From the UHGV virus genome UHGV-1550212: a stretch of DNA of 64,000 nt; one strand, written 5' to 3'. Below the pieces are notes generated by a model, which saw only the letters and a list, made by a program, of their open reading frames with translations, was not told the origin of the DNA and did no database searches. The stretch comes from a virus. A program made the translations under genes and the position numbers. Positions 1,154 to 55,684 of this stretch are shown here, piece by piece (positions within the stretch are counted from its first letter, which is position 1; every line of letters starts with the position of its first letter).

Positions 1154-1777
1154 TTATGCATTGGCAATTTCAGATGGCATTCTGAACTTGATGTCATTAT
1201 ACACAAATGTCAATGTGAATGTCATCACGTTCTGGTCTACACGAGTTTTGTCATATGTGAGTTCTGAAATTGCAGAAAACACGACATCAATGAAGTCGAT
1301 GCCAAACAATGGTTTCTTTGCACCGCCATATGTCGCTACAAATCTGCAGGGCTGAAAGTAGATAGTTTCGCGTTTATCGTTAGCGTATCTGAACAAACTC
1401 TCTAAGCAACAAAAATAGCTTAAACCACCATTCGTCAATCTGCATGTCACCTGGATTCGCTTATCAAGTGCTTGATGAATTGTCTTGCTGCCCTTATGAA
1501 ACTGTGTAATTGACTTCTTCATGCCACTGTCATCAAGAACTTTATTGACATTCTGAGTAACAATTGGCATCGATATGCCCATCAATGACACAGACTGAAT
1601 TGAATCATGCAACAAGTCATTGATGTCATAAATGATTTGTGTTGGTTGTTGCACAAACACTTTATTGTAAGTATCAGCAATATCTTGCGGAATCAAATCA
1701 ATTGGCAAGTCAAAGCGAAACTGGTCTGACCGTGTATCGAGAATGAGCATATTTTTGATAATTTGTTTATGTACCAT
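1154..1777 (-). CDS. hypothetical protein
   Basis: 207-aa ORF; stop abuts the start of the upstream gene; no motif recognised. Confidence 0.5.
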   Translation of the reverse strand: MVHKQIIKNMLILDTRSDQFRFDLPIDLIPQDIADTYNKVFVQQPTQIIYDINDLLHDSIQSVSLMGISMPIVTQNVNKVLDDSGMKKSITQFHKGSKTIHQALDKRIQVTCRLTNGGLSYFCCLESLFRYANDKRETIYFQPCRFVATYGGAKKPLFGIDFIDVVFSAISELTYDKTRVDQNVMTFTLTFVYNDIKFRMPSEIANA

Positions 1778-2976
1778 TAACTGTCATACGACCAGTGACC
1801 ACAGTCATACACTGGCACAAATCCAGTGTCAAGCATTTCTTGCTCAATAAAGCCATCATCAAGCAAATGTTCACCTGACTTCGTATTGACCCAATGCTTC
1901 TTAATTGTGCATTCATCAACCACAAAGGGATTAAGTGCATTGTCAGTGCAATCAATGAACACATTATTCAAATGCGCGTCAATGACATGCAGCACAATTT
2001 CTGGGTTGTGCCAATCAAATATCATAAGTGGCGTGTAGCCACATACAATTGCAAGTTGTTGCTTCCACCAATGATAGTTTGGCTGTTTTGCTTCTGCGGC
2101 ATTTCGTTTAAAGCCATACACGCTATTATGAGTATGCGTCGGGTTAACGTCAATTAGCAGATTGCCATAATACAGGTCATATGATGTTATGCCAACATCA
2201 TGTTCAAACTCAAAATGCACACCAAGATGTTCTTCAATGTATGATTGCCACCATCTGTTTGGCGCAGATATGATTTGCCCATTTGCTTGCATACATTTAT
2301 TTGTCATGCAAAACCATGGCACACCGTAACGTTCCATACAGGTTTTTGAAATTGCAGCAAGCCATTCATCTTTGTCTCTATGCGGCCATGCATAACCATA
2401 ACGCAGACGACATGTTTGTTGAGCTTTAGCAACGATTGGCGCTAAACGTTCACCGTATATTTCACGTTTAGTTGCGATGGCTTTGCGTGGATTAGTCCAT
2501 CCAGCATCACCCCATCGCTCAAGCTTCGTTTGCTGAGATTTTTCAACAATCAGTTCAAGATTCTCACCATATTTTTGACGACGAGTTTGCATTGCTGCAA
2601 CATAATCTGTAATGCATCTATGGCCATACAAACGTTCTTTTGTCGCACTATGTGCTTTATCGCCATATGAACTGCCGTAGCGTGCAACTTTAGTGGCAAT
2701 TGTTTGCTTGATGTTGCCTGCTTTAGAACCATAACGAGCTTCTTTAGTTGCTACGCATTTTTGTTTGACTTCTGCTCTGTTCCAATTATGCTCAACGCCA
2801 TGTTTACGAAGATGGCCAATTTTCATGTTGTACACGTTTTTGATATGACCATGAGATGTCTTACGTGGTGCATATCGTACAAATGGTGTTTCTGCAAGCA
2901 ACTTATCTCGTTCAGCTTCAAGCTCTTTAATTCGAGCTTCAAGAGCTTCACCAGTCAAATGCTCTACATGTTTCAT
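1777..2976 (-). CDS. tandem-repeat protein (about 8 x TK..RYG-type units) with C-terminal nuclease-like domain; possible homing-endonuclease-like gene
   Basis: N-terminal coiled-coil LTGEALEARIKELEAERDKLL, then ~17-20 aa repeats (ATKEARYGSKAG, ATKVARYGSSYG, KYGENLE, RYGYAWP, ERYGVPWF), C-terminal LLIDVNP...H block. Paralog of 55801..56967 with identical 5' nucleotide stretch. Confidence 0.55.
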   Translation of the reverse strand: MKHVEHLTGEALEARIKELEAERDKLLAETPFVRYAPRKTSHGHIKNVYNMKIGHLRKHGVEHNWNRAEVKQKCVATKEARYGSKAGNIKQTIATKVARYGSSYGDKAHSATKERLYGHRCITDYVAAMQTRRQKYGENLELIVEKSQQTKLERWGDAGWTNPRKAIATKREIYGERLAPIVAKAQQTCRLRYGYAWPHRDKDEWLAAISKTCMERYGVPWFCMTNKCMQANGQIISAPNRWWQSYIEEHLGVHFEFEHDVGITSYDLYYGNLLIDVNPTHTHNSVYGFKRNAAEAKQPNYHWWKQQLAIVCGYTPLMIFDWHNPEIVLHVIDAHLNNVFIDCTDNALNPFVVDECTIKKHWVNTKSGEHLLDDGFIEQEMLDTGFVPVYDCGHWSYDS

Positions 2977-4874: not shown

Positions 4875-6365
4875 TTATGCCTTTTTAGATTTGCGCTTTG
4901 CGGCAACTACGACTTCTGCTACGATAGCTTCTACAGTAGCTTCAGTTACAACAGACTTGTCTGCAACTTTTACAAGAGCTGCATGCAACTTGTAGTTGCC
5001 GACTTTGCTGAAAGTGCACTTGAATTCTGTTGTTGCGTTGTATTCTGCAGGTACTGCAAAACCACTGTCAGGACCCCATACACCAGTGTCTTCAAATGTC
5101 CAAGACTGTCCTTGTGAATCTGTTGCAGCGAATGTCACATGACCATCTTCAGGTGCTTCTACAATTTCATATTGCAGCTGAACGCCATCAACACCTGCTT
5201 TACCAACGACTTCAGTTGCAAGTGTTGCATTGATTGCAACTTCTGTTGTAGGCTGAATACTTGCAGGGACATCTACAGAAATCTTGTATTCTGACACTTC
5301 AGGCTGAACTGGCTCAGCAACAACTACTGTAGACTCTGCTTCAACAACTACACTGTCATCAGCAACCTTGGCAAGAACTGCATGCAACTTGTATGCGCCT
5401 GCCTTGCTAAAGATTACAGTGAACTTTGTAGTTGCATTGTATTCTGCTGGAATGTCAAAGCCTACTGCAGGACCCCAAGTTCCATTATCGACGAATGTGT
5501 ATTCATTGCCAGTTGTGTCAGTAGCCTTGAATGTCACATGACCATCTTCAGGTGCTACGTCCACGCCATAACGGAACTGAACTTTGTCAACGCCGACGTC
5601 GCCAACAGTCTTCGTTTTGAATGTTGCATCAAGCTCAACTTCAGTGTTTTCGATTATTGTTTCAGGTGCAGACATTTCGAACTCGTACTCAGACACTGTT
5701 TGTGCAGCTTGTTCAAGTTTGATGTTCTTTGTCTTGTTTGAACTCATAGTCTCACGACCAGCATGGCTAATGTAGCCCTCTTTAGACACTTCCCATACAA
5801 TTTCTTCGCCTGACAAAACAGTCAACGAATTGCGAACTTCGCCATTCATCTTGATAACTGCATCTGCAGGTTCTACATTAATTGTCAGTGTAGCTTTGCT
5901 AAGCTTAACAAGCTCCACTACTTGAATGACATCATGATTTGTGAGCGTGATTGTGCCCTCCTGAGATTCATAGCCCTCTTTCGACACTTCCCACTTAATT
6001 GGAATGCCTGCGGGCACATTCTCAAGCATCTTTGTAGCCTCACCATTGATTTCTACATGAGCATCTTCAGGCACTGGCTGAATTGTGATGCTGAACTTGT
6101 CTTTACCAGGTTCAGGGTCTGGTCCGGGTCCTGGGTCATCACCAGTAATTGCAGGGATGATAGTGTTTTCGATGACTTTCTGAGCTTCTGCAGTTGTGCC
6201 ATAGAATTTGAGAGTTTTCTTGGCTTCTTCTACAGACATCTTCTCAAGATTATCTGCAAGATATGTCAGACCAGTGACTGCAGCAATTTTCTGCCGCATT
6301 TCTGGGCTAATGACTACACCAGTAGATTTGACTACTGGAGCAGCTTGTTTTTGTTTCTTTGCCAT
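4875..6365 (-). CDS. protein with tandem internal beta-sandwich-like (Ig-like?) repeats
   Basis: Two ~125-aa near-duplicate blocks (VAPEDGHVTFKATD...PAEYNATTKF / VEAPEDGHVTFAATD...PAEYNATTEF) plus shorter WEVSKEGY repeats; start moved to in-frame ATG (MAKKQKQ) at 6365. Confidence 0.55.
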   Translation of the reverse strand: MAKKQKQAAPVVKSTGVVISPEMRQKIAAVTGLTYLADNLEKMSVEEAKKTLKFYGTTAEAQKVIENTIIPAITGDDPGPGPDPEPGKDKFSITIQPVPEDAHVEINGEATKMLENVPAGIPIKWEVSKEGYESQEGTITLTNHDVIQVVELVKLSKATLTINVEPADAVIKMNGEVRNSLTVLSGEEIVWEVSKEGYISHAGRETMSSNKTKNIKLEQAAQTVSEYEFEMSAPETIIENTEVELDATFKTKTVGDVGVDKVQFRYGVDVAPEDGHVTFKATDTTGNEYTFVDNGTWGPAVGFDIPAEYNATTKFTVIFSKAGAYKLHAVLAKVADDSVVVEAESTVVVAEPVQPEVSEYKISVDVPASIQPTTEVAINATLATEVVGKAGVDGVQLQYEIVEAPEDGHVTFAATDSQGQSWTFEDTGVWGPDSGFAVPAEYNATTEFKCTFSKVGNYKLHAALVKVADKSVVTEATVEAIVAEVVVAAKRKSKKA

Positions 6366-6452
6366 AAGATATTGTGAATTTGGTTGTTTATTCTTAACAA
6401 AATATGTACATACAGATGCAACAGATGATATGTCAGATACACAAAGCTGCAT

Positions 6453-6494
6453 AAAATGACCAGACTTGCAAATAAATTTAAGCAAGTCTGGTCA
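6453..6494 (-). terminator. intrinsic terminator
   Basis: 13-bp stem TGACCAGACTTGC/GCAAGTCTGGTCA, 12-nt loop, U-tract on minus strand; just downstream of the polymerase C-terminal ORF. Confidence 0.6.
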
Positions 6495-6509
6495 TCAGTT
6501 TTGATTGCA

Positions 6510-7802
6510 CTACAACAATGACGGCACTCGTTGAGTTTCAAGTGGGTCGCTGACATTGATGCCTGTGTATGCAACAAGTCGTTGTATTGGGCCAAGTACG
6601 AGTTTTTCGAACATGAGTCGTTTGTTCATTGGCGGCACATCTGGCATATACTTCGGTGTCGGCATTTCGCCTGGTGCAAAGCCAAATGCATCGCAATATT
6701 GACGAGAGCCAATTGGTATATTTGACAAATCTGACTTTGCTCTGTCAACAAAGTAGTAGAACACTCGACCGCCTTCAATCAATGGGTATCGTGTTTCCAA
6801 TCCATGTGCTTTGACAAGACAGTTATGCCAACAACATGCTCTATATTGAGGCAGTACACCTTTTGCTAACTGCCATTCACCATCATAGCTTAGCACATAG
6901 TCATGATACTTGTTTGCATTGACATATGCACAAAGTTTCTCCAAGTCTTGCTCGGCTTCAAAGCGTTTCCATAATTTCTGTATGAGCTTTGGATATGTCG
7001 CAGAAGTTAATTCGCCTCTGAACATTTTCTTGAATGCATAATCAAGCATTTGTCTAACAAGCATTGACGAGCCTGTTTGAATAAGTTCGATGCCTTTGCC
7101 TTGAATGTGCTCAGTAGGGTCTTCGAATACTCGACCATCTACATATATTTGAGCCTTTAAGTACTTTTTCTTTTGGGCAAATAATGCAGTGTCAGAAATC
7201 GTTTCGAGGTCAAATAGCAAAATTGAATTGCCGTGGCGTTTTGCGAGGTCTGCTGCATATGCACCATTGAATAACTCTTCCATACGATATTTGAATATCG
7301 CAAGAATCAAGTCATACCAATTTTTGCCTATGTAGCCAATTGATTTGACAGTTGGCTCAAAGTGAATGTACAAAGAGTCTGTATCAATGTACAACACTTT
7401 GTCTTCATAAGGCTCTTGCTTTGGCGACACAGACAAATCAAAATTGCCCTTCAATTGTGGGTCATTACGCAGCTTTTCATGCAATTCATAATCACACCAC
7501 CACTTATTGTTGAGATAGTCATTTGCTACTCGTTCACCAAAGTGAATGAAGTTGCGGCCTTCAGCAGTAATTGATTCTGCAACTGCCATATTAAAGAAGT
7601 GATAGAAACGATTGCTTGTAGCGCCATATATTGAGTTTCGACAACATTTTGCTGAGACTTGCAGTCCTGCATGCTTTAGTGATTCTTGCATTGCAAAATC
7701 TCTCAATTCAAATAGACGTTCAGTAGACAACTGGCTTAAATCACCAGTCAAATCTACTCCATCTATTTCAATTTTTGACATATCTATCTGAGCTTCTGCC
7801 AT
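6510..7802 (-). CDS. family B DNA polymerase, C-terminal part (motifs B and C)
   Basis: Contains K-x3-NSxYG (KCCRNSIYGATSN), YIDTDS and KKKY motifs; has its own promoter (7824-7853) and terminator (6453-6494). Confidence 0.85.
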   Translation of the reverse strand: MAEAQIDMSKIEIDGVDLTGDLSQLSTERLFELRDFAMQESLKHAGLQVSAKCCRNSIYGATSNRFYHFFNMAVAESITAEGRNFIHFGERVANDYLNNKWWCDYELHEKLRNDPQLKGNFDLSVSPKQEPYEDKVLYIDTDSLYIHFEPTVKSIGYIGKNWYDLILAIFKYRMEELFNGAYAADLAKRHGNSILLFDLETISDTALFAQKKKYLKAQIYVDGRVFEDPTEHIQGKGIELIQTGSSMLVRQMLDYAFKKMFRGELTSATYPKLIQKLWKRFEAEQDLEKLCAYVNANKYHDYVLSYDGEWQLAKGVLPQYRACCWHNCLVKAHGLETRYPLIEGGRVFYYFVDRAKSDLSNIPIGSRQYCDAFGFAPGEMPTPKYMPDVPPMNKRLMFEKLVLGPIQRLVAYTGINVSDPLETQRVPSLL

Positions 7803-7823
7803 AAGTTGTTTATTTTTGATTAA

Positions 7824-7853
7824 ATTGTACTACACATGTTGCAATTTTTGCAA
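7824..7853 (-). promoter_or_regulatory. sigma70-like promoter (TTGCAA-N18-TACAAT)
   Basis: 22 nt upstream of the polymerase C-part ATG (7802). Confidence 0.5.
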
Positions 7854-7866
7854 TACACATGTTAAA

Positions 7867-7899
7867 CCAAAATGCAGCAGCAGATGTTCTGCTGCTGCA
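7867..7899 (-). terminator. intrinsic terminator
   Basis: 11-bp stem TGCAGCAGCAG/CTGCTGCTGCA with 5-nt loop, U-rich tail on minus strand; downstream of 7944..8771 and upstream of the polymerase C-part promoter. Confidence 0.6.
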
Positions 7900-7943
7900 T
7901 CGGCAGGTATCTTCACAATTGTTTGAGTTGATTGCAATGCGAT

Positions 7944-8771
7944 TTAGAATGGCAGGTCGCCATCATCACCTACAGCATCAAAATCAGCAGCAATGTCATA
8001 TACCAACGTCATTGCGATTCGCAAATCACGTTTCTTAGATTTCAGACGCATGATGTCATGACCTGAATTGTTTGTGATGACTGAGCATTCAAACTCTTCA
8101 TTGCCGTCGATGAATGACAGCATTGATTTGTGAATTGTGATTGGCGACAAATCTGACGGATATGACGAATCAATCACATATTCAAAGTTGTTGTTCTTGG
8201 CAATTAGGCCTCGTTCAGTTGTGCGAATCTCAATGCCGGGCAGTTCCTTGTCACCTGTATTCAATGAGCCATACGATGACATGATGCCAAAGTGATTTGA
8301 CGTCAAATCGAGCTTTCTCAGATTTGTTGTGCTATCAAACAGCATTGACATATCATTGTCAGACAGCTCAAAGTAGCCAAGTGATGGCATTGAACAAACC
8401 TGATTGATTTTGAGCTGATTGTTTGAGATTACAATGAGCTCTGCAATTGTATCTGTACCAATTTGTTTGACATAGATTTCAATCATTGCATATGAGCCAA
8501 ATGCAGCAAGTACTCGATTGTTGAATTGCGTGCCATTGTAAATAAGCGCCTTGACTGTGACATCTTTGAGTGTAGACTCATAATGTTCGCAAATGTCAAG
8601 CACATTAAGTGTCTGCGACTTTACAAAGCTACTATTGCCAGCATCAGTTCTGATTCGCTGGTCATTGAGTGAAAAGCTAAGCTTGCCATCGCATTTTAAT
8701 GATGATGCAAACAATGCTCGCAGCATATCAATGTTTGCATTGCGTAACGTAATTTTGTTCAGATTTTCCAT
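7944..8771 (-). CDS. putative replisome/ssDNA-binding protein with SSB-like acidic C-terminal tail
   Basis: Ends ...DFDAVGDDGDLPF, resembling the polymerase-interacting acidic tip of SSBs (DDDIPF). No OB-fold evidence seen by eye, so function is tentative. Confidence 0.4.
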   Translation of the reverse strand: MENLNKITLRNANIDMLRALFASSLKCDGKLSFSLNDQRIRTDAGNSSFVKSQTLNVLDICEHYESTLKDVTVKALIYNGTQFNNRVLAAFGSYAMIEIYVKQIGTDTIAELIVISNNQLKINQVCSMPSLGYFELSDNDMSMLFDSTTNLRKLDLTSNHFGIMSSYGSLNTGDKELPGIEIRTTERGLIAKNNNFEYVIDSSYPSDLSPITIHKSMLSFIDGNEEFECSVITNNSGHDIMRLKSKKRDLRIAMTLVYDIAADFDAVGDDGDLPF

Positions 8772-8805
8772 CTTGTATCTATGTTGTTGATTTTCAATTT
8801 AATAT

Positions 8806-8834
8806 ATTGAACAACATTTGTTGACATTTTGCAA
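8806..8834 (-). promoter_or_regulatory. sigma70-like promoter (TTGCAA-N17-TTCAAT)
   Basis: Upstream of 7944..8771. Confidence 0.45.
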
Positions 8835-8839
8835 CATTG

Positions 8840-9214
8840 TCATCGATTGTCGCCTGACCCATGCAATACACCTCGCAATTTTCGAGACTGCAGTTTCTGA
8901 ATGTTAAGCTGACAAATGTCAGTTAAGCTGTAGCCCAAATCATGTGCAAGAGTTGCAGCATACCACATGACATCGCTGAGCTCTTTTGCGATTTCCTTGC
9001 GAATGTCTTCATTATCAAAATCACCATTCTTGTCTCGAATGACTTTTTTGACTTTGTCTGCAACTTCGCCTGCTTCACCCGTTAAGCCAAGTGTTGGATA
9101 GATAATTGCAGCTGATTTAGGATATACTGCGCTATCAAGCGCAGCAGTCTGATATTCATCAATAGTTGAAATCCAAGTGTGGTCGATTACGCCGTGTTCA
9201 TCTCGTTTAAGCAT
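8840..9214 (-). CDS. mazG: MazG-like nucleoside triphosphate pyrophosphohydrolase
   Basis: LGLTGEAGEVADKVKK ... EIAKELSDVMWYAATLAHDLGYSLTD is the typical all-alpha NTP-PPase pattern. Confidence 0.75.
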   Translation of the reverse strand: MLKRDEHGVIDHTWISTIDEYQTAALDSAVYPKSAAIIYPTLGLTGEAGEVADKVKKVIRDKNGDFDNEDIRKEIAKELSDVMWYAATLAHDLGYSLTDICQLNIQKLQSRKLRGVLHGSGDNR

Positions 9215-9215
9215 A

Positions 9216-9707
9216 TCATTTACGTTTTTGTTTGACTCTTAATCGTTTTTGCATAAATGCTCTTGTAGCTTCACCAAAAGCCATCTCGTCTCGTTCGCCA
9301 CCACAAAGCTTTGCAAGCTTATTGAATGTGTCTTGGTCAATCATTGTGTACGTTGAGTTGTTGACCACATGCAATGCAAACTGAATCAGCGGTGCGCCTG
9401 GCTGCAAGCAGAATGGCTCTTTACCTGCATTGTACACTGCAAGATGAATCTCGCCATGATAGTCTGAATCTACAAACTCACTTGTTTTGATGATAAGATG
9501 ATTTCGTGAAATGCCCGACTTATTGTAGGCAATCAATGCATGACCGGCAGGCACAAGTGCTTTGATGCCAGATGGAATTGCAATGCCCTCACCAGGTTGC
9601 AGCATTGTTTGCACAAAATCATTGGGTATGCAAAAGTCCCATGCGCCAGATTCTGCTGTTGACTTAAAAGGACTTTCTACATTTCTGCATTTTGCAAAGA
9701 ATAACAT
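9216..9707 (-). CDS. dut: dUTP diphosphatase (dUTPase)
   Basis: dUTPase-like motifs SGAWDF, VDSDYHGEI, LIQFAL and C-terminal GGERDEMAFGEATRAF. Confidence 0.7.
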   Translation of the reverse strand: MLFFAKCRNVESPFKSTAESGAWDFCIPNDFVQTMLQPGEGIAIPSGIKALVPAGHALIAYNKSGISRNHLIIKTSEFVDSDYHGEIHLAVYNAGKEPFCLQPGAPLIQFALHVVNNSTYTMIDQDTFNKLAKLCGGERDEMAFGEATRAFMQKRLRVKQKRK

Positions 9708-9730
9708 ATTAAGTATGTGTTTGTATGTTG

Positions 9731-10081
9731 TTAGTACATTTCTCGTTTAACAAGAGCTTTGCGTTTTGAGCGTAGCCCTGCCCTATTACGTAATTCTACT
9801 GACCAATCACGAATCATTTGCCATGCAATCCCACCACGTTGAATACCACCGTGCTTGAACATTTCATTGCAAATACCTTGAATAAACACCGCATCAGACT
9901 TTGTCAATGCGTCAACAATTTGACCATGGTTGTCTTCTGTCTTGACATCATTGCAAAGCTTAAGCTCATCTACTGAAAGTTCGCCAAGCAGCTCATAGTA
10001 GTATATGAGAGCTTTGCGTGCGGCAATTGCTTTTCTTGAATTGCCAGAATAAGACAAAGTCACATGTTTGCTCATATTCAA
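9731..10081 (-). CDS. hypothetical protein
   Basis: 116-aa ORF lying inside the insert that splits the polymerase; no motif recognised. Confidence 0.45.
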   Translation of the reverse strand: MNMSKHVTLSYSGNSRKAIAARKALIYYYELLGELSVDELKLCNDVKTEDNHGQIVDALTKSDAVFIQGICNEMFKHGGIQRGGIAWQMIRDWSVELRNRAGLRSKRKALVKREMY

Positions 10082-10095
10082 TTATTGTTATGGTG

Positions 10096-11601
10096 TTACA
10101 ATTTGATTGCGCCTCTACGAGCAAGCTCTTCTTCAATCAATCGAACATGATTGTTAGCATACCAAAATTGCAATTTTTTGTGATAATTGCGAACGTTGCC
10201 AAGCTGTTCTTGAGTTTCTTTATACATTGAAGGCTCTCTGTTGTCATACAGACAATTGTTGACTGACACAAAGTAATTTGGGTCTGCTTTGTAATGCTCA
10301 ATTTCATCAGGATTTGTTAAACGTCTAATAAAGTTGTCTGGTGAAATATTCGCCGAGCGCATACTTGACGGATACAATGAGTTTGCGTCAACACAGACAA
10401 CCATACGAGCCCAATGGTTAAATGGTTGCTTAACAAAGCCGCCCTCAAATGAATGTACTACATTCTCTGGGCCACCTTGAGCACATACAACTTTGCCGCC
10501 ATATTTGTTGTATAAGTATGTCATCATGACGCCCTCAGATTGCTTAACTGGTCCTTGGCAGTGATTCATGTCAATATTTGTCATATTTGACAATGACATC
10601 ACATTTGATATCAAGTCAGTTTTTGCAGCAATCATTGCATTGACCATAGTATCGACAGCATTGTATGCAATGAATGTGCATGGATGATACAAATACAGCT
10701 CTTTAAGTGTGCAATCATAGGGCAACTTACCTACGCCGAACATACGATGTGCAATGTAGTCAAGTCGCAATGATTCCTTTTGCCACACTGAATAGTCGTA
10801 TGTGTCCATGAGCTGCATGTAGTCATCAATGTACTTGTGATATGGCATACCATTGCCCCAGACAGTTCTGCCAACTGGAGATGCCAATGCTAAATCAATA
10901 TTGTGCATTGCGCATCGATTTTTGACATAGATGTTATCGAAGTCATTGATGTTCCAGCCTGTCAATGCAGGAATGTTTTTGAAGAGCTTAGTCACCCAAA
11001 AATGCAACAATTCATGCTCATTTGCATGTTGAAAAATTTTGACAGTTGGATGTTCTTTCAAATACGCAGCAAAGCAATGTTGACCCATATACTCTTGAAT
11101 GATGCCATTGACAAACTCAAATGCATCATCCAATGTTGGGTTTTGTTTGCCGCAGCTTTTGCGCAAATCATCATCATTCAACAAGTCAACAGTAGTCTGA
11201 ATGACACAATTGCATTGTTCATCGCATGTACTTATTGCATTAATGGGCATTTCAGCTTTGTCAGGCTTTGGAAAGCCATTGCCAATTTCAGTCTCAATAT
11301 CGTAAAAGTACAACTTTGGTCTACGATAAGCAAACAATTCAGCTTTGTCAGCTTCAGGCAATTCAAATAAGAATTGCAGCAAGTCAAATTGATTGAATCG
11401 TTTTGCTGTGACTCGAGTCACTGGCAATTTACGCCAATCTTGAATATCTGCATATTGAGGCTCTACGTGGTCTGATATTTGCCACACTGGAAATTGATAT
11501 GGCTGTTCACAGACTGGGTATGTTTTGATGTCAATGCCACCTTGCTCATTAACATATGAGACTTCAATGCCATGTGACAAATATGCTACGTCAACAATCA
11601 T
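10096..11601 (-). CDS. family B DNA polymerase, N-terminal part (3'-5' exonuclease domain and motif A)
   Basis: Exo I FYDIETE, Exo II NINDFD, Exo III YNAVDT, polymerase motif A DANSLYPS; stops ~100 aa after motif A; own promoter at 11630-11658. Confidence 0.85.
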   Translation of the reverse strand: MIVDVAYLSHGIEVSYVNEQGGIDIKTYPVCEQPYQFPVWQISDHVEPQYADIQDWRKLPVTRVTAKRFNQFDLLQFLFELPEADKAELFAYRRPKLYFYDIETEIGNGFPKPDKAEMPINAISTCDEQCNCVIQTTVDLLNDDDLRKSCGKQNPTLDDAFEFVNGIIQEYMGQHCFAAYLKEHPTVKIFQHANEHELLHFWVTKLFKNIPALTGWNINDFDNIYVKNRCAMHNIDLALASPVGRTVWGNGMPYHKYIDDYMQLMDTYDYSVWQKESLRLDYIAHRMFGVGKLPYDCTLKELYLYHPCTFIAYNAVDTMVNAMIAAKTDLISNVMSLSNMTNIDMNHCQGPVKQSEGVMMTYLYNKYGGKVVCAQGGPENVVHSFEGGFVKQPFNHWARMVVCVDANSLYPSSMRSANISPDNFIRRLTNPDEIEHYKADPNYFVSVNNCLYDNREPSMYKETQEQLGNVRNYHKKLQFWYANNHVRLIEEELARRGAIKL

Positions 11602-11616
11602 ATATCATTATCTTTT

Positions 11617-12027
11617 TTAGAATAGAGATATTGTACAACAATTTGATTCAGGTTGCCATTCTACAATATGCGCATCAAAGTGTTTGTTAAGCCAATGTGC
11701 AAGTATGTGTCTATGACAAAATGCAGATAGTCTGCACCAACATAACAATACAATGTCTCGTTCGCCTGCAAGAATCTTTATGCGATGCAGCATCAAACTT
11801 ATCTGTGACAATGCAGCGTCAAGTTTTGCTGCATATTGCTCTGCATATTGTGCATTGTCAAGCAAGCCTGCTTTATGCAAACGAACAAGTGACATGTAAT
11901 CAGGCATGACGTCAGTCCATGTAAAATCTGCTATGAAGCCCTTAGGCTTTGTTGCAGACACTTGAACAAGAAATGCGTTATCAGGCAGATGCCTGCATGC
12001 ATAATATGAAGTTAAGATTCTTGTCAT
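11617..12027 (-). CDS. hypothetical protein
   Basis: 136-aa ORF with Cys/His-rich C-terminal segment (LLCWCRLSAFCHRHILAHW). Confidence 0.45.
   Translation of the reverse strand: MTRILTSYYACRHLPDNAFLVQVSATKPKGFIADFTWTDVMPDYMSLVRLHKAGLLDNAQYAEQYAAKLDAALSQISLMLHRIKILAGERDIVLLCWCRLSAFCHRHILAHWLNKHFDAHIVEWQPESNCCTISLF
11630..11658 (-). promoter_or_regulatory. sigma70-like promoter (TGGCAA-N17-TACAAT)
   Basis: 29 nt upstream of the polymerase N-part ATG (11601); lies inside the 3' end of the preceding gene. Confidence 0.5.
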
Positions 12028-13722: not shown

Positions 13723-13751
13723 ATTGTACAACGCTAAGTGTCATTTTGCAC
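13723..13751 (-). promoter_or_regulatory. sigma70-like promoter (GTGCAA-N17-TACAAT)
   Basis: Upstream of 13110..13679. Confidence 0.5.
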
Positions 13752-29155: not shown

Positions 29156-30214
29156 TTACTGCTTCAAGCCTGTGAACAGTTCATACTTGAATGCAGGCCC
29201 TGCTGTGTAAGCCTCAAAGTAGAAGTCACCAATATTGATGCTTGCAATAGCGTCATCGACAGCTTTCTTGTAGCCTACACGTTCAATTGTCTGCTTATCG
29301 CATTTACGCCAATATGTGCTGTGCATCATAAGCGTGGGTGATGCAGCATAGTCTACTGCAAGCTGTTGTTTTGCAGTGTCAATGTGATGTTCATAGATGT
29401 GCACATCATTGCCAGTCCAAATGAACTCTCTTGCCACACAGTTAGTCAATGTTGCAACAATATGTGTAAGCAATGCATATGATGCGATATTGATGGGCAC
29501 ACCAAGACACATGTCACAGCTACGCTGAGTAAGCGCACAGTCAAGCCACATGCTTGGTACTTGAGCAGAATCAAGGCATTCTGCAGAACCATCATGCACA
29601 AGCATGCTATCATTAGCAATCTGAATTCGTTCTTCAAGAGTCATTGGCTGACAATTGAACTGAAACAGCATATGACATGGCGGCAATGCCATCTGAGACA
29701 TTTGCGCAGGATTCCATGCAGACACGACTTTGTAGCGGCCAGTTGGATTGATGACAATGTCTTTAATGCAAGTTGCAAGTTGGTCAAATCCACTGTCATT
29801 GAAGTTGCGCCACTGATACCCATAGATAGGTCCGCAATCACCATACTCAGGTTTGCTGAATTTTGTGTTGTGCAGTTCTGTGCACCAAGTGTCAAAGTCG
29901 ACATCTTCACCTGGATGCAGCTTTTGCCAATGACGATATGCATCCTGATGCCAGAACTTTGTAATGCCAAGCGTGTCAAGCGTTTTGACATTAGTGTCAC
30001 CTGACATAAACCACAGAAGTTCTCCAATGACGCCTTTGACAAACATTCTCTTGGATGTCAACAGTGGAAAGCCTTTACGCAAATCAAATCGCATTGATTC
30101 TACAAACAATGACTTTGTGCGAGGCATGTTTTCACGAGCAGGTTCCTTAAATCTGCCATGCTCAATAACATTATTAAGTACTCTCAAGTACTCAGTGTCG
30201 TGTTTGATATTCAT
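29156..30214 (-). CDS. thyA: thymidylate synthase (ThyA family, dUMP-specific type)
   Basis: ThyA blocks GELLWFMSGDTN, GPIYGYQWR, SAWNPAQMSQMALPPCH, QRSCDMCLGVPINIASYALL (Asn retained), WTGNDVHIY; ~60-aa C-terminal extension. Confidence 0.85.
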   Translation of the reverse strand: MNIKHDTEYLRVLNNVIEHGRFKEPARENMPRTKSLFVESMRFDLRKGFPLLTSKRMFVKGVIGELLWFMSGDTNVKTLDTLGITKFWHQDAYRHWQKLHPGEDVDFDTWCTELHNTKFSKPEYGDCGPIYGYQWRNFNDSGFDQLATCIKDIVINPTGRYKVVSAWNPAQMSQMALPPCHMLFQFNCQPMTLEERIQIANDSMLVHDGSAECLDSAQVPSMWLDCALTQRSCDMCLGVPINIASYALLTHIVATLTNCVAREFIWTGNDVHIYEHHIDTAKQQLAVDYAASPTLMMHSTYWRKCDKQTIERVGYKKAVDDAIASINIGDFYFEAYTAGPAFKYELFTGLKQ

Positions 30215-35803: not shown

Positions 35804-38800
35804 TTAACAAATTGATGATGTGCCATCAGTGTTTGCTACAACTGTCAATGCGCTATCAAACTCATCTTGCTGTAACACATGGTCAACTATGAGTGTTTTG
35901 CGAATTGCAGAAAGCTTAGTAAGCAACTGCATCAACACTTGCTGATAATTGATGGTGTTGACGTCATGCTCAGCGCCAACAATCTGCCCGTTGCTAAGCT
36001 TGCCGCTAATTTCATCAATGAGCAAGATGTTGCCAACTTTGTTTAAGCGTTGAGTCAAAATGAGATGCACGATTGCAAGACCTGCGAAAGTCCCTTCCAT
36101 ACCAGACATTTGACTTACACTTCGAATTGACTTCGAGCCCATCAAGTCAATCATCTTTAGCACATTGTTGTCATTGATGTCAAAGAACACTCGGTAGTTC
36201 AATGAATCAAGCAAATCATTGAGCTGTGCATTCAGTGATGTTGCAATTGCTGCAAAGACATATGAAACTAAGCCTCGTTTGCTTGTGCACTGCTTATATG
36301 CATTGTACACCAAGTTTGCAATGTTCCACTTTTTCGAAGCTTGCAAATCTTTCTTGAGAGCTTCAATTCGCACATTGTTTGCTGACAAGTCTGCTTGCAT
36401 TGTTGCAATTTCTGCATTGATGCTTAGCAGTTTTGAGTTTGCTTCAGTTTCATGCTGCTTAGCATCATCAATGTCGACTTGCAATGCAGCGTTTGCCACA
36501 ATATGCTGCTGAGTTTGCTGTGCATGTTCAAGTGCAAATGCTGCAGCAGTCTTGTCAATCTCAAGTTGTTTAAGAGTAGACTCATATGATGCTTTCTTAT
36601 CATATTCTGCTTGAGCAATTTCAAGTTCAGCATTTATTGCAGCCAGTTCTGATTCTACTGCAGATTTTGATTGCAATACATCTTGCTTTGCTTGTTCAGC
36701 TTTACGTTTGATGTCTGCAAGTTGATTTGTGATATCTGCAATTTGCGTTTTGACTGCTTCAACTTCAAGCAATGTTGCTGCAGTAGCCATTGGCTGTGCA
36801 ATGAATGCATCCAAGTCTCTTTGCGCATTGACTACAGTTCTTTGCAAGTCATTAAGCTTTTCTGCATGCATATCATATGCAGCTTTATGTGCTGTATTCA
36901 GTGCAGCAATTATTGCATTTGAATCTGTGACATCAATGATTGCTGCTTGCAATTGCTCAATCTCATACTTCAAATTGCCAATTTTGACAACATTCTCATT
37001 GAATTGCTCTGTCTTTTGCGCGTATTCTTGACGCAACTTAGCAAGCTCAGTTGACAACCACAGCTTGTATGCTTGCCCTGTGCCAGATGTCAAATCATTT
37101 GTGCACACAGGACATTTATCATTTTCAAGTTGCTTTTGCTTGTCTATAACATTGTCGATGTTTGTTTTTGCAGCAGATACTTCTGTTCTAAGTGCATTTT
37201 GAACAGTGTTGATGTCTTCAATTTGCTTTTGCAAAGCATCTATTTTTGCCCGAGTGTCTGCATTATATGACTTGCCAAGATTTACCAGCACAGAATCAAT
37301 GCGCTGCTTTGCTGCATCATATGCAAGCTTTGATTCATCAAGCTTTGTTCTGTACAATGATTCTGCATGCGCAACTTCTTTCTGCACTTTTGCAGATAGC
37401 TCATTCTGTTTTGTAAGCAGCTCAGCATATGTATTGTGCAGCTGTGAGCCAGATGCTATGACATTTGTGTATGCTGCATTAGCTTCATTGTCAATATTAG
37501 TGAGTTGTTGCTCAATCTGCGCTTTTACTGTTTGCAATTTAGACATGTCTTGCAATGCAAGTGCAGCAATGTCAAGCTCAACTTTGCGAATCTTTGCAAC
37601 GATGCTATCGACATTTGCTGTTGCATCTTCTACAGTTAAAATATCTGCAGGAATTTGATGCAGTCTTTTTGAGAGCTCTTCTACTTTTGCACGTGCTTTT
37701 GTAAGTTTTGCAGACCATTCCCTTTGATTATCTTGTCGTAACTGCAAAGAGTCATTGAGTTCATTGCAAGTTGTATTGAGAGACTCAAGTTCTGCTTTTA
37801 TTGCGACATCAGTCAATGCGGGCTTACTAAGGCCATCAAACAATGCGGCCTTTGCAGCATCATTAGAATTGCCCAGTTGCACGAATGTGTTGATGCCAAG
37901 AGTATCAAGCAACCAGTCATTCAATGAATTTGAATCCATTGCAATGATTTGGTCAAGTAATGTCTGATTGATGCAGACATATCGCGACAATTCCCAGATA
38001 GAACCAAAGATTGCGTATAGCGTGTCTTTGATTTCATGCTGTGGCACTACGTAGTCATCTGACAATCTTACAAGCTGCACAGTCTCATTGACTGCTGACA
38101 CGTTATCTCGCCATGAGCCATCTGCATTTATTCGAGAGCCCCGTTTGAATCTACGTTCAAGTGTTCGAGTTAATTTGTAGTGAACATTTTGACCAGCTAC
38201 TACATGTACAAATACACAAGATGCTTCAAGCTTATCATATGACTCATTGTCAATCAATTTGTCATTGAAGTATGTCAAAGCGTTCTGCTTTGTTGCTGCA
38301 GAAGACTGTCCAGCGTCAATAAAGCCAGTCAGCAGCCATTTAATGAGTCTGAAGATTGTTGTTTTGCCATTGCCGTTGTTGCCTCTAACTTGTGTAAGCT
38401 GTGCAAGATTGTCAAAGCTGACATCGACATCTTTCAATGCCATGAACTGATTTGCTTTGACATTTTGAATGACGTATTTTGCAACTTCAGTGTCAAAAGA
38501 CAATTTATCAATTTGCTCATCAATCAATGACTTGAACATGTCAACAAACTGCTGAGCGTCTTCAGTAGCAACTATAGCATTGCGTTCAATGTACGCATTG
38601 ACCCAGTCAAGTGCAGCATCTTTAAGCCATTCAGCAGTTTGAACTTTTTGCAGCAAATTGTCGCCATTTGCATCTACAGCATTGATTGAATCAATGACAG
38701 CAGAATCATACAGAATGTCAATTGCGGCAACAACGTATGAACTTACAAGATTCTGTGCAATGCGCTCAACAATGCCAGACAGTTCGGGCTTTGTGACCTT

Positions 38801-39730
38801 TGACTTGATTTTGATTTTGTTGATGCGACCAGGATTGATGAGTGCAATCTTATCTGTTTTGATGTCATTGTCAATTGTGATTGTATGATAATGCACAAGC
38901 TGCTCAAGCGAATGCCACTCTACTACAATTCGCTTGTTGTCAATATCGATGTCAAGCAAGTTGTAGCCATGTTCTGCAGTGCCCTGTTGCGTTGCAGTGT
39001 CATTCAACAAATAGTCGCCTTCACCAAAATCTCTGACAATTGGCGAGCCGCAGTATGTCAATGTCTTGGTGCCAGAAGTCCATATTGCATGTTTGTGAAT
39101 ATCACCCATTGCAACAAAGTTGCTGTGAAACTGTGTTGCATCTATACGACTGTCATTGTCACCACGAACAATGCAGTCATCAAAGTTGACGCAATTCTTT
39201 ACAGGGTCATGGAACAGCTCAATAACACACATTGATGACAATGCAGCAATCTGCGATTCGTCAAGTGATGCCCAAGGCGAATATGTGCCACCAGACCACT
39301 TCTCATTTTGAGCCCATACTGCAGCAGCAAAACCAGGTGCAAGCAGTTCAACTCTTGAACTGTTGATATACTTGATTCGCTTGTCATCAATTGCAGTTAC
39401 AAGCTTGTCAATGCTATCTGTCCACTGCATTTGTGAACCATCACCAGCATCAAATGTGTTATCACGTTGCTTCAAATCATGATTGCCAGCAGTAATGACA
39501 ATTTGAAGCTTGTCATTGACTTCAAGCATGCCTTTGAGCAGCTTAACAAACAGCGACTCTTCAAGTGAATTGCTGTTCCACTGCTCAAACACATCGCCAA
39601 CAATAAACACAAACTCAACCGACTTTGCTTTGTCAATTAGTTGTTTGTTGATGTGCTCATATTCTACGAAACGTCGTAAATGCCCTTGTCGAACATTATA
39701 TTGAATGTCTGCTATGTGAAGTGCTTTCAT
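35804..39730 (-). CDS. fused SbcD-SbcC (Mre11-Rad50-like) nuclease/ATPase
   Basis: N-terminal calcineurin-like phosphoesterase motifs (HIADIQ, IVGDVFE, TAGNHD, GDIHKH); Walker A GNNGNGKTT; long coiled coil with CPVC zinc hook; C-terminal LLIDE Walker B. Confidence 0.8.
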   Translation of the reverse strand: MKALHIADIQYNVRQGHLRRFVEYEHINKQLIDKAKSVEFVFIVGDVFEQWNSNSLEESLFVKLLKGMLEVNDKLQIVITAGNHDLKQRDNTFDAGDGSQMQWTDSIDKLVTAIDDKRIKYINSSRVELLAPGFAAAVWAQNEKWSGGTYSPWASLDESQIAALSSMCVIELFHDPVKNCVNFDDCIVRGDNDSRIDATQFHSNFVAMGDIHKHAIWTSGTKTLTYCGSPIVRDFGEGDYLLNDTATQQGTAEHGYNLLDIDIDNKRIVVEWHSLEQLVHYHTITIDNDIKTDKIALINPGRINKIKIKSKVTKPELSGIVERIAQNLVSSYVVAAIDILYDSAVIDSINAVDANGDNLLQKVQTAEWLKDAALDWVNAYIERNAIVATEDAQQFVDMFKSLIDEQIDKLSFDTEVAKYVIQNVKANQFMALKDVDVSFDNLAQLTQVRGNNGNGKTTIFRLIKWLLTGFIDAGQSSAATKQNALTYFNDKLIDNESYDKLEASCVFVHVVAGQNVHYKLTRTLERRFKRGSRINADGSWRDNVSAVNETVQLVRLSDDYVVPQHEIKDTLYAIFGSIWELSRYVCINQTLLDQIIAMDSNSLNDWLLDTLGINTFVQLGNSNDAAKAALFDGLSKPALTDVAIKAELESLNTTCNELNDSLQLRQDNQREWSAKLTKARAKVEELSKRLHQIPADILTVEDATANVDSIVAKIRKVELDIAALALQDMSKLQTVKAQIEQQLTNIDNEANAAYTNVIASGSQLHNTYAELLTKQNELSAKVQKEVAHAESLYRTKLDESKLAYDAAKQRIDSVLVNLGKSYNADTRAKIDALQKQIEDINTVQNALRTEVSAAKTNIDNVIDKQKQLENDKCPVCTNDLTSGTGQAYKLWLSTELAKLRQEYAQKTEQFNENVVKIGNLKYEIEQLQAAIIDVTDSNAIIAALNTAHKAAYDMHAEKLNDLQRTVVNAQRDLDAFIAQPMATAATLLEVEAVKTQIADITNQLADIKRKAEQAKQDVLQSKSAVESELAAINAELEIAQAEYDKKASYESTLKQLEIDKTAAAFALEHAQQTQQHIVANAALQVDIDDAKQHETEANSKLLSINAEIATMQADLSANNVRIEALKKDLQASKKWNIANLVYNAYKQCTSKRGLVSYVFAAIATSLNAQLNDLLDSLNYRVFFDINDNNVLKMIDLMGSKSIRSVSQMSGMEGTFAGLAIVHLILTQRLNKVGNILLIDEISGKLSNGQIVGAEHDVNTINYQQVLMQLLTKLSAIRKTLIVDHVLQQDEFDSALTVVANTDGTSSIC

Positions 39731-39789: not shown

Positions 39790-39818
39790 ATTGTACAACA
39801 TATGTTATCATTTTGCAA
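39790..39818 (-). promoter_or_regulatory. sigma70-like promoter (TTGCAA-N17-TACAAT)
   Basis: Upstream of the SbcD-SbcC gene; leader contains the conserved element. Confidence 0.55.
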
Positions 39819-40155
39819 GCATTTTGATGATTGCATCTATCACAGTTTCACTGAGCAAGTAGTAGACAACGCTTATCAGCAATGATATCAGTACTGCAGC
39901 TGTGATAAATTGCAACGCATTCACAATTGCACGCACAAATGTTATCTGCGTGTTGTATGCAAGCACTATGCAGCATAGCACAATAATGACACACCAGACT
40001 ACAATTGCATATGCAGGCATCAATGAATTTGTCCATATGCAGTACAATACAGTAATTAGCATCAAAAATGCTATTGCTCTGATAACTGACACAATGATGT
40101 CTATGTAAGGCTTCATTGCACGCAAATGAACTCTTGGTTTATGTTGCTTCATCAT
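39808..40155 (-). CDS. multi-pass membrane protein
   Basis: 115 aa, highly hydrophobic. Confidence 0.5.
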   Translation of the reverse strand: MMKQHKPRVHLRAMKPYIDIIVSVIRAIAFLMLITVLYCIWTNSLMPAYAIVVWCVIIVLCCIVLAYNTQITFVRAIVNALQFITAAVLISLLISVVYYLLSETVIDAIIKMLAK

Positions 40156-41390
40156 GACTTTATGTACAATTCTGCAAGTTGTCTGGTGTACAGTCGTGGA
40201 TTATGATATGCTTTCCAATACGCAGTAGACTTTATTGCAGCAAGAATTTCATCATAATGTTTGACTGCTTCTGCTACAACTTCATCAAGCACGCTCAAAT
40301 CTTCTACACTGACAAGCAACCATTTTTCTACAATATCAATGAACTCCTGATTGCAATTGAAGCCATACTTGTAGTTGCAAGTATCAAGTACAAGTGGAAT
40401 GCAATCATTTGTCAATGCTTCAAAAAATCTACGAAGACTGAAACAATTCTCATCATATGATGGAATGCTCAATGTAAACTTGGCAGTCTTGATGAGTTGC
40501 AAATACTCTTCGTATGGAATCAGAGGACCATTGTGCTTCCATTGATTATTGTGTCGTCTTGTCGTGTACTTGAACAAAAACTTTGAATTGTCAAGTTCAC
40601 AAAGATGGTCCATGCGTAAAATGTAGTTATAGCGGTCTCTTCTGTCAGGCCAACTGTCAGTCATCGCAAACACAAAGTCTCTTTGCTTGTCACATTTTGC
40701 TGACATACCTCTATGCTGACACATGCAATACCAATATTGCTGCGATGGGCTGAACTCAAACTTTGAATGATGCTCACTTCCATCTTTGCATTGCTGAACA
40801 TAAATGTTGTCAGGCACAAAGTGAAAATAAAAGTGTCGAATTTGCAAGTCATTGATGTAGTCAAGCTTATGCTGCAATGGGTCTTCACAGAAATTGTAAC
40901 ACTGAATATGCTTTGCTGCTGCGTACTCAGCAACTATGAACGTGCACATCCATTGCAATGCAATATCTTCACTCTTCAAAAAGTTTACAAGCGGCTCATT
41001 TGGATGCGCTTTGCATTCATTGAACATTTTGTACCACTTGCATTGCTCCATATCGTACTTTGATACTGTATTGCCATTAAAGAACGACACAGTGTCAATT
41101 TTGAATGCATCAAGTTGTTTATGCACAATGTCAAGTGCTTGTGCGTATGTGATTGTCTCATCAGACATTATCTGCGCAAACTTGATTGGATGCGCATGCA
41201 AATTTGCGATAGTGTCTGCCGACATTTTACGCTGTGTGTGATAATCGACATACAAAAACTGACACTTGTCTGTAAGCAATTCAAGCATTGCTACAGATTT
41301 CCATCGAATTGCTTGAAAGAAATTGAAGTGTGCAGTTTGAAAGATGAGATGCGTAGGTTTATCAGAATGAGTCAAAGTTTGCATGGACAA
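40152..41390 (-). CDS. putative glycosyltransferase-like protein (cassette copy A1)
   Basis: Paralog of 44432..45988 (shared EDPLQHKL, PSQQYWY, FTLSIPSYDENCFSLRRFFEAL...CIPLV); the last block resembles a GT-B C-terminal motif. Confidence 0.4.
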   Translation of the reverse strand: MSMQTLTHSDKPTHLIFQTAHFNFFQAIRWKSVAMLELLTDKCQFLYVDYHTQRKMSADTIANLHAHPIKFAQIMSDETITYAQALDIVHKQLDAFKIDTVSFFNGNTVSKYDMEQCKWYKMFNECKAHPNEPLVNFLKSEDIALQWMCTFIVAEYAAAKHIQCYNFCEDPLQHKLDYINDLQIRHFYFHFVPDNIYVQQCKDGSEHHSKFEFSPSQQYWYCMCQHRGMSAKCDKQRDFVFAMTDSWPDRRDRYNYILRMDHLCELDNSKFLFKYTTRRHNNQWKHNGPLIPYEEYLQLIKTAKFTLSIPSYDENCFSLRRFFEALTNDCIPLVLDTCNYKYGFNCNQEFIDIVEKWLLVSVEDLSVLDEVVAEAVKHYDEILAAIKSTAYWKAYHNPRLYTRQLAELYIKS

Positions 41391-44411: not shown

Positions 44412-44440
44412 ACAGTACAACGTAGTTATGCTCATTGCAC
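44412..44440 (-). promoter_or_regulatory. weak sigma70-like promoter (GTGCAA-N17-TACTGT)
   Basis: Upstream of the dNMP kinase gene; -10 is a poor match. Confidence 0.3.
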
Positions 44441-54553: not shown

Positions 54554-55684
54554 CTACTTGAGCCCGTTGATGAATGCTTCAGTTTCAGCATCCATCGTTG
54601 CTGCTGCAGGTGCTGCTGCCGGAGCTGCTGCAGGTGCAGGTTCTGGTGCAGGCGCTAAAGCTGCTGCAAACGGGTCAATGGCTGTCTGAGCTGCTGGTGC
54701 AGTAGCAGGCGCAGCTGCCTGAGCTGTTGCAGGTGCAGGCTGAGTAGTCTGTGCCTGCTGAGCTGCTGACGAATTGATGACAATGTCAGGCCAGATATCC
54801 GACACATCCTTGTAGTTAGCAAGGCGCATCTTAACCTGACGCTTGATGTCATCAGAAGCTTCGTGGTAGCCCCACTCCTTTTCGACATTCGGGTACTCCT
54901 TGAGCATGTCGACAATCTGCTGCATAATTTGCTGCTTGTATGCAGGGTCAGTGTCATACTTCGCCTGGTCAACAAGCGTGCCATCTGCAAGCAGCATCGA
55001 CGATACGTTGGGCGAAATCGTCGAAGTCTCGTAGTCACGCATTTCAACGCCATTGACGTCTTTCAGCGTAATCTTCAAGAGAATGTCGTGGCCCTTAACG
55101 GGATGGAACATGTCCATAGGCTGAGCACCCATCTGGATGTCTTCGTCGGTAGGCTTCATTGCAGACATGCAACGCTTGTAGATGGCTGCAGGGAGTCGAT
55201 ATGGGAGTACTTTCCCAACGTTCTCAGGGTGCACTGAATCAGCCTTGATTTGCACGAGGCAAGTGTACTGACTCTGCATGCTGAACTCTCGCTTTGCAAG
55301 CGCTTCCTGCTGAGCATCCTTGGTATTGATGAGTTCCCAGTAGAATGCCGAAATGGGACACCATCCATAGGGCTTCATCAAATTTTCAGGATTTTCAGGA
55401 TGCGGATTCGGCGAGCTCGGCGAATTGTAGCGGAAGCCCTGATTAGCGCCAGTGCCAAACCAGTAGTAACGGACGATTGAAATCGGCACCGCGGGGTCAT
55501 TCAAGTTCGGCAGAATTCGAATGACTGCTCGATAGATTCGGTCCTTACTTTCGGAAGGCTTAGGATTAAAAAACTCAGGTCCTGCAGAACGTTCCGGCTT
55601 AGCAAAGCTTGCTACATTGTCCGGCTGGACATCAAAGATTGACAGCGGCTGATTACCGGTCTGCCCATTTTCAATTTGTGACAT
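54554..55684 (-). CDS. hypothetical protein with Ala/Pro-rich low-complexity C-terminal region
   Basis: 376 aa; visibly GC-richer codon usage than neighbours; C-terminal (AP/AAP)n linker then a short conserved-looking tip; possible abundant DNA-binding protein. Confidence 0.5.
   Translation of the reverse strand: MSQIENGQTGNQPLSIFDVQPDNVASFAKPERSAGPEFFNPKPSESKDRIYRAVIRILPNLNDPAVPISIVRYYWFGTGANQGFRYNSPSSPNPHPENPENLMKPYGWCPISAFYWELINTKDAQQEALAKREFSMQSQYTCLVQIKADSVHPENVGKVLPYRLPAAIYKRCMSAMKPTDEDIQMGAQPMDMFHPVKGHDILLKITLKDVNGVEMRDYETSTISPNVSSMLLADGTLVDQAKYDTDPAYKQQIMQQIVDMLKEYPNVEKEWGYHEASDDIKRQVKMRLANYKDVSDIWPDIVINSSAAQQAQTTQPAPATAQAAAPATAPAAQTAIDPFAAALAPAPEPAPAAAPAAAPAAATMDAETEAFINGLK

Follow-up and report, generated by a model that had tools for sequence, protein, structure and literature searches.

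Division of a family B DNA polymerase at the tip of its fingers domain has been described both in nature and by design. Natural finger-tip splits of the phage gene 43 product (gp43) are recorded for Acinetobacter phage 133 and Aeromonas phages 44RR, 31, 25 and 65, the distance between the two genes ranging from 2 bp to 3 kb (Petrov et al. 2006, 2010, summarised in PMC3061061). In the records that we checked, genes 43A and 43B of Acinetobacter phage 133 are 2.9 kb apart, with eight genes between them, and those of Aeromonas phage Asfd_1 are separated by a 58-bp gap. An artificial counterpart, archaeal Pfu polymerase engineered with a cut in helix O, next to its very short finger tip, proved fully active when reconstituted from separate fragments (Hansen et al. 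2010, PMC3061061). Methanothermobacter thermautotrophicus PolB is a natural two-gene enzyme whose halves are 85 kb apart (Kelman et al. 1999, as cited in PMC3061061) and which, by the same account, is cut in the palm domain, around 83 residues C-terminal of the Pfu finger split. Here we describe a locus in the UHGV virus genome UHGV-1550212, analysed as one stretch of 64,000 nucleotides (nt; hereafter the window), where a replicative family B polymerase of the T4 gp43 type is very probably made as two polypeptides, PolN and PolC, that assemble without a covalent link. Coordinates throughout are positions of the whole window. The window and IMG/VR contig 3300045988_152288 (174.6 kb) are one sequence, or at any rate agree without a difference in the 21.3 kb of the contig compared. 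The locus is on the minus strand, which holds nearly all of the window genes.

Motifs A, B and C of a T4 gp43-type polymerase are all present, divided over two open reading frames (ORFs), each with its own start and stop codons so that each half is a complete cistron (Table 1). Pfam recognises DNA_pol_B_exo1 (PF03104, E = 1.4e-12) and the start of DNA_pol_B in PolN, and the remainder of DNA_pol_B in PolC. The exonuclease motifs of PolN, invariant in an alignment of its relatives, are Exo I (D101-I-E103), Exo II (N217..F221-D222) and Exo III (Y313..D317); the protein also carries palm motif A (D405ANSLYPS) and the first finger helix (R471). PolC carries the second finger helix with motif B (K52CCRNSIYG: K52, N56, S57, Y59, G60), motif C (Y138IDTDS) and the thumb. 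The best PDB matches of both halves are RB69 and T4 gp43, and in PHROGs the halves belong to separate families, PolN matching phrog_2062 (N halves, 502 positions) and PolC phrog_1918 (C halves, 382 positions), each from end to end.

An earlier note on this DNA, made from the sequence alone, had proposed a polymerase split between motifs A and B by 2.3 kb holding four genes. All of its ORFs are present on the minus strand, with DANSLYPS at PolN residues 405-412 and the PolN stop 89 amino acids (aa) further on, where the note had given about 100, and with both KCCRNSIYG and YIDTDS in the downstream ORF. The gap measures 2,293 bp and does contain four intact genes, the dUTPase and MazG among them being confirmed by Pfam. 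The order of transcription is PolN, a hypothetical gene, dUTPase, MazG, a 275-aa gene and PolC.

The position of the break was mapped against gp43, as the earlier note had advised, through HMMER alignment of profiles of the relatives to the RB69 protein. PolN aligns with RB69 up to residue 492, its invariant R471 falling on RB69 R482 with some 30 PolN residues beyond, while residue 20-21 of PolC aligns with RB69 526-529 and motif B with K560/N564. These alignments put the break at about RB69 gp43 505-525, at the finger tip, between the two long finger helices. In published RB69 structures the fingers domain comprises residues 469-572, and the stretch at 505-525 is the loop between its two long helices. 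Together the halves amount to 931 aa, compared with 903 aa for RB69 gp43, so that no part is lacking and an intein could not be accommodated. A MAFFT alignment of the concatenated halves with contiguous polymerases laid the last 12 PolN residues on helix N instead; it conflicts with the HMMER result and was set aside, the latter being preferred because R471 is invariant across the relatives whereas the PolN tail is not. The arrangement resembles that of 43A/43B in T4-related phages: the cut is at the finger tip, two cistrons are used, and the N halves are around 500 aa long and the C halves around 390-430 aa.

According to protein searches, this two-gene arrangement recurs in Chryseobacterium phages MA9V-1 (ORF135/138) and MA9V-2, Sphingomonas phage PAU (gp105/gp110) and Tenacibaculum phages pT24 (gp165/gp168) and PTm1 (gp236/gp239/gp241), whose halves share 24-36% protein identity with those of the window; no match to the locus was found at the nucleotide level among deposited phages. 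Alignments show a homologous site at which the N half stops and the C half starts in MA9V-1, PAU, pT24 and PTm1. The two genes need not be neighbours. In the uncultured huge phages LR756504 and LR756501 they occupy opposite strands at distances of 281 kb and 618 kb, respectively. The C-half profile picked out 80 loci in IMG/VR, and in eight of these, too, no N half lies in the 10 kb upstream of the C half or in the 1-10 kb covered downstream.

All the split loci associated with the clamp gene described below fall into one clade of a neighbour-joining tree of the C-half region, a midpoint-rooted distance tree that carries no support values. The clade stands apart both from 65 contiguous gp43-type genes, the comparison that the earlier note had recommended, and from the split Aeromonas phage Asfd_1, which groups with contiguous T4-type genes; descent of the window's split from a T4-related (Straboviridae) split lineage is not borne out by this tree. 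The clade's split looks like a single old event, probably independent of those in the T4 group. Comparison of the sequences indicates that it is ancestral to the clade comprising PAU, PTm1, pT24, MA9V-1/2 and the uncultured and huge phages, and that it is no recent insertion. The split is already deposited for PAU, pT24, PTm1 and MA9V-1/2, and finger-tip splits have been published since 2006, so its kind is not new. The genome papers of MA9V-1 and pT24 enter the ORFs as polymerases without comment on the split or the clamp, and the clamp is unnamed in the clade phages' four GenBank records.

Two members of the clade have further interruptions. The PTm1 polymerase (locus L089, 3175-9502) is in three pieces, running PolN (gp236), clamp (gp237), DUF7487 endonuclease (gp238), first part of PolC with an N-intein (gp239), Vsr-like endonuclease (gp240) and C-intein with the second part of PolC (gp241), the intein lying at motif C. 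In MA9V-2 (locus L086) a TnpB (IS605 OrfB) gene at 5007-6173, absent from the sibling MA9V-1, sits between clamp and PolC.

The 275-aa gene of the gap had been called SSB-like, that is, a single-stranded DNA-binding (SSB) protein, in the earlier note. The protein has no sequence-level match in Pfam, PHROGs or PDB. An exhaustive profile search assembled a family of around 65 representative clusters (clustering at 50% identity), nearly all of 246-296 aa and matched over most of their length. AlphaFold2, run on the family alignment, gave a model with a predicted local distance difference test score (pLDDT) of 93 and a predicted template modelling score (pTM) of 0.87. With Foldseek, 518 PDB hits were obtained at E<=0.001, and all 50 of the 50 listed are sliding clamps. 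The monomer shows two topologically repeated clamp domains, and on the strength of this model the gene is identified as a PCNA/gp45-type sliding clamp. The family profile built from 59 sequences reaches pT24 gp167 at E = 4e-35, although a profile of three sequences gave no significant match. As an SSB the protein does not hold up: its predicted fold is that of a clamp, with no OB-fold or gp32-type domain, and the window's real gp32-type SSB is a different gene at 54554..55684 (minus strand; PF08804, E = 6.6e-17). The acidic tail, which ends in DLPF, is probably what prompted the SSB label. PolC itself ends in ..PLETQRVPSLL, the PL-x-Q followed by hydrophobic residues being conserved at the extreme C-terminus; by analogy with the tail of RB69 gp43, this segment may bind the clamp.

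Relative to T4 gp45, the window clamp is longer (275 against 228 aa), has the acidic tail ending in DLPF and lacks sequence-level matches in the three databases named. Its position differs too. In T4-type phages the clamp gene is upstream of the whole polymerase (45-44-62-regA-43A), whereas here it lies between the halves. The break homologous to that of PAU, pT24, PTm1 and MA9V-1/2, and the clamp-family gene between the halves, are features shared with those phages. A hidden Markov model of the clamp family places the gene directly upstream of PolC in the window and in 17 other loci, the eight lacking a nearby N half included, and the stop and start codons of the pair often overlap; in MA9V-2 the TnpB element separates them. 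The remaining contents of the gap are less constant: the dUTPase recurs between the halves in PAU (gp106) and in the related locus L004, and the other genes differ, PAU having two unknown genes beside its dUTPase, MA9V-2 its TnpB gene, and PTm1 an endonuclease gene in addition to the split-intein cut at motif C. Since the clamp gene adjoins PolC across most of the clade, the gap is not the one inserted block that the earlier note had supposed; gene content points rather to a widely conserved clamp-PolC pair plus variable cargo.

Table 1. Features of the split polymerase locus, in order of transcription
Feature	Position	Strand	Basis
Promoter-like element before PolN	11630..11658	-	
PolN, predicted N-terminal polymerase subunit, 501 aa	10096..11601	-	ORF, Pfam, PHROGs, clade alignment
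Empty homing-endonuclease site 1 (putative)	10091..10093		
Hypothetical gene, 116 aa from TTG or 114 aa from ATG at 10075	9731..10081	-	
dUTPase, 163 aa	9216..9707	-	Pfam, PHROGs
MazG-type nucleotide pyrophosphohydrolase, 124 aa	8840..9214	-	Pfam, PHROGs
Promoter-family site before clamp gene (TGCAAAATGTCAACAAATGTTGTTCAAT)	8806..8833	-	
Predicted sliding clamp, two-domain PCNA/gp45-type, 275 aa, acidic C-terminal tail	7944..8771	-	
Intrinsic-terminator-like hairpin, clamp gene to PolC interval	7871..7901	-	
Empty homing-endonuclease site 2 (putative)	7856..7868		
Promoter-family site before PolC (TGCAAAAATTGCAACATGTGTAGTACAAT)	7824..7852	-	
PolC, predicted C-terminal polymerase subunit, 430 aa	6510..7802	-	ORF, Pfam, PHROGs, clade alignment

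Other explanations of the two genes were weighed against assembly of a single enzyme. The two products might act separately, PolN for example as a stand-alone proofreading exonuclease, without forming one enzyme; the halves are unlinked in many relatives, so that linkage is not needed for their co-regulation. We nevertheless judge this very unlikely, given that the catalytic aspartates (motif A in PolN, motif C in PolC) and the two finger helices are divided over the halves, and that both halves are present in 10 of the 10 loci spanning both as well as in the LR756504 and LR756501 records. The mechanism of family B polymerases, which leaves neither half able to polymerise alone, counts in the same direction.

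Marginally less probable again is a disrupted and decaying polymerase gene, its work being done by another polymerase, for which the second split PolIII-alpha-like enzyme of group 2.2 jumbo phages (Iyer et al. 2021) might be proposed. Decay would be hard to square with exonuclease and polymerase motifs that are intact and invariant across a clade sharing only 24-36% identity, or with a break at the same site in every member. Nor does it fit the ratios of non-synonymous to synonymous substitution rates (dN/dS). Measured against the sibling L006, which is around 94% identical, these are 0.127 for PolN and 0.068 for PolC, beside 0.036 for the clamp gene and no more than 0.09 for the other three genes of the gap, and they indicate purifying selection on both halves.

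Still less credit can be given to a joining of the halves after transcription or translation, whether through an intron spliced in cis or in trans or through a split intein, giving a full-length polymerase. Precedents exist close at hand, in the split intein inside the C half of the clade member PTm1 (gp239/gp241) and in the group I intron within 43B of phage 25, of the T4 group. At this locus, however, no Rfam family, intron covariance models included, matches at E<=1 across 6300..11800, and Pfam finds no intein or Hint domain in PolN or PolC, whereas the same scan detects the PTm1 intein, both gp239 and gp241 hitting PF14890 (Intein_splicing). The ends of both halves align with RB69 finger residues and leave no spare length; between the halves stand four conserved genes under selection, with promoter-like sites and a terminator-like hairpin; and relatives have the halves on opposite strands, separated by hundreds of kb. 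With dN/dS of 0.07-0.13 for the two genes, these results bear out the earlier note in its preference for a two-subunit polymerase over an intron or intein. The idea of a contiguous gene in which the stop at 10096-10098 arose through faulty assembly or sequencing, which the note had named as a way in which it might be wrong, can be dismissed, as the stop, its flanks and the ...EEELARRGAIKL C-terminal end of PolN are identical in six independent assemblies of the phage species (IMG/VR, ENA, Logan) and 2.3 kb of other genes follow.

The same break throughout the clade, the unlinked halves, the purifying selection and the conserved stop together make a two-subunit polymerase well supported. In such an enzyme PolN would supply the N-terminal and exonuclease domains, motif A and the first finger helix, and PolC would contribute the second finger helix with motif B, motif C and the thumb. 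A cut in the finger-tip loop would leave each half with whole secondary-structure elements, and the site for deoxynucleoside triphosphate (dNTP) binding would form across the PolN-PolC interface of the presumed heterodimer. As the Pfu finger-tip split behaves as wild type, the mechanism is established for the family; for this phage we infer it. Several observations weigh on the other side. Binding of the two proteins to one another, and DNA polymerisation by them, are read by analogy with the systems described. Phages of this group also carry the second, minimal split PolIII-alpha-like polymerase (Iyer et al. 2021), so that PolB need not be the sole replicase. Adjacency of clamp and PolC is not universal, the PTm1 clamp gene following directly on PolN with an endonuclease gene before PolC, and LR756504 and LR756501 lacking any clamp hit in the 4-5 kb or so around PolC. 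Finally, scans of some 35 window proteins against Pfam or PHROGs turned up no clamp loader, although relatives reportedly possess a gene for one.

The two halves also appear to be provided with separate transcription signals. A generic sigma-70 scan does not rise above chance (23 sites against 18 +/- 4.6). The phage's own intergenic regions yielded a motif, TGCAAA-N11-12-TGTTGTACAAT, which was first seen there by eye, and for which strand bias (13 to 0; 16/17) and near absence from coding sequence serve as independent checks. The full motif occurs 13 times, always on the coding strand and in 12 of the 13 cases between genes, compared with 0.33 occurrences in shuffled sequence; its -10 part, with one mismatch allowed, occurs 17 times, 16 of them on the coding strand, against an expectation of 5.0 +/- 2.3. 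Further full-motif sites on the minus strand include those at 13723-13750, 39790-39817, 49265-49292, 49318-49345 and 61128-61155.

A member of this one putative promoter family stands ahead of PolN, another ahead of the clamp gene and a third ahead of PolC. The site before PolC is 22 nt from its ATG and coincides with the promoter that the earlier note had flagged at 7824-7853. The element before PolN, 28 nt from the ATG, has an exact TGTTGTACAAT as its -10, one of five exact copies in the window, all on the minus strand, and TGGCAA as a -35-like hexamer; the latter puts it outside the strict full-motif pattern, and it was found on reading the sequence. It falls inside the 3' end of a gene of the DUF488-N3a family (11617-12027, minus strand) immediately upstream of PolN. 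At the level of motifs, then, the note's proposal of a promoter for each half is supported. Its terminator, given as 7867-7899, corresponds to a real hairpin with a 14-bp stem, the loop ACA, a folding energy of -26.3 kcal/mol (z = -5.8) and a following T-tract, TTTTGGTTT; the stem is kept in siblings while the loop varies. We regard it as a predicted intrinsic-terminator-like element between clamp gene and PolC. Start codons of the window lack an obvious Shine-Dalgarno sequence, and in several leaders ATATATAATATA...CCTCTAC(A/T)ACA recurs immediately ahead of the ATG, perhaps as a second class of promoter or leader.

Both borders of the gap look, from precise presence/absence polymorphism beside a conserved target gene, to be landing sites for predicted freestanding homing endonuclease genes. 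Reportedly, phage 25 also has such a freestanding gene at its split. Site 1, 3-5 nt after the PolN stop, bears in the sibling L006 only a 1,231-bp insertion with a 399-aa gene, whose product matches Pfam DUF7487 (36 bits against a cutoff of 27) and phrog_3339, 'homing endonuclease'; the five other alleles, that of the window included, are empty. L006 alone also has a divergent 300-nt patch, which starts at motif A, extends to the first finger helix and carries 70-75 mismatches where the empty alleles differ mutually by 0-19, in keeping with gene conversion tied to the endonuclease gene. Site 2, immediately beyond the terminator T-tract, is occupied in sibling L090 by about 1.2 kb with a 382-aa gene and in L094, L095 and L100 by a different, 320-aa paralogue that is 35-37% identical to the L090 gene; it is empty in the window, L006 and L091. 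The window accordingly carries empty alleles at both sites. As with the promoters and the terminator, the endonuclease activity is a predicted one.

Mosaic patches are present in PolC at 7590-7700 and 7190-7290, where siblings diverge by 25-36% in nucleotide sequence against a background of 3-8%. The patch around motif B, in which 35 of 110 nt differ, was considered as a footprint of the site-2 endonuclease gene and rejected, for it does not follow site-2 occupancy; the two motif-B alleles, SAKCCRNSIYG and TFKTLRNSIYG, are unlinked to endonuclease occupancy. Elsewhere in the window, a 399-aa DUF7487 gene at 1777-2976 (minus strand) is 38-41% identical to the endonuclease genes in the siblings' polymerase gap, so that the family is present although both polymerase sites are empty. 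A 388-aa homologue of the phrog_3339 homing endonucleases is encoded at 55801-56967 (minus strand), directly upstream of the gp32-type SSB gene, which is thus, by homology, another replication gene flanked by this endonuclease family.

Among the neighbouring genes, the hypothetical gene of the gap has no family match in Pfam or PHROGs; it is kept in the siblings, with zero non-synonymous changes relative to L006. Directly 3' of PolC, at 4875-6365 (minus strand), is a head-fibre-like gene with Head_fiber_dimeric and PEGA domains and two internal repeats about 72% identical at the DNA level. PTm1-type phages are known for their head fibres. Further away, a single ORF of 1,308 aa (35804-39730, minus strand) combines a calcineurin-like phosphoesterase (Mre11/gp47-like) with AAA_23 (Rad50/gp46-like), and from these domains looks like a fused recombination nuclease-ATPase.

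A last group of window genes comprises a long thymidylate-synthase homologue (352 aa) and three glycosyltransferase-like genes, at 29156-30214, 40152-41384, 41372-42547 and 44432-45988, all on the minus strand; the glycosyltransferase-like matches are to GT47 and to a beta-glucosyltransferase PHROG. Together with the dUTPase and MazG of the gap, they hint at modified DNA bases, and the DNA of PAU has been reported to be heavily modified. Split Pfu polymerase gained a tolerance for bulky gamma-phosphate adducts (PMC3061061). It is conceivable, though on balance we think it rather unlikely, that the two-chain finger tip is an adaptation kept across the clade, phages of 630-735 kb included, and not a tolerated scar, and that it perhaps admits bulky pre-modified dNTPs. 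Were such an adaptively open finger tip real, the siting of the clamp gene next to PolC would be the sign of a clamp-thumb module that co-evolves, set apart from the exonuclease half.

What the present analysis adds to the deposited splits is the identification of the clamp, the picture across the clade and the polymorphism of endonuclease genes at both borders. A previously unannotated family of about 65 clusters can now be called as a sliding clamp, filling a gap in the replisome annotation of PAU-type phages. The occupied and empty alleles at both borders in close wild strains provide a natural system for following the colonisation of the edges of an essential gene by endonuclease genes. 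And the clade itself, large, poorly described and reaching into the huge phages, offers many natural pairs in which the assembly of an active site from two chains may be studied.

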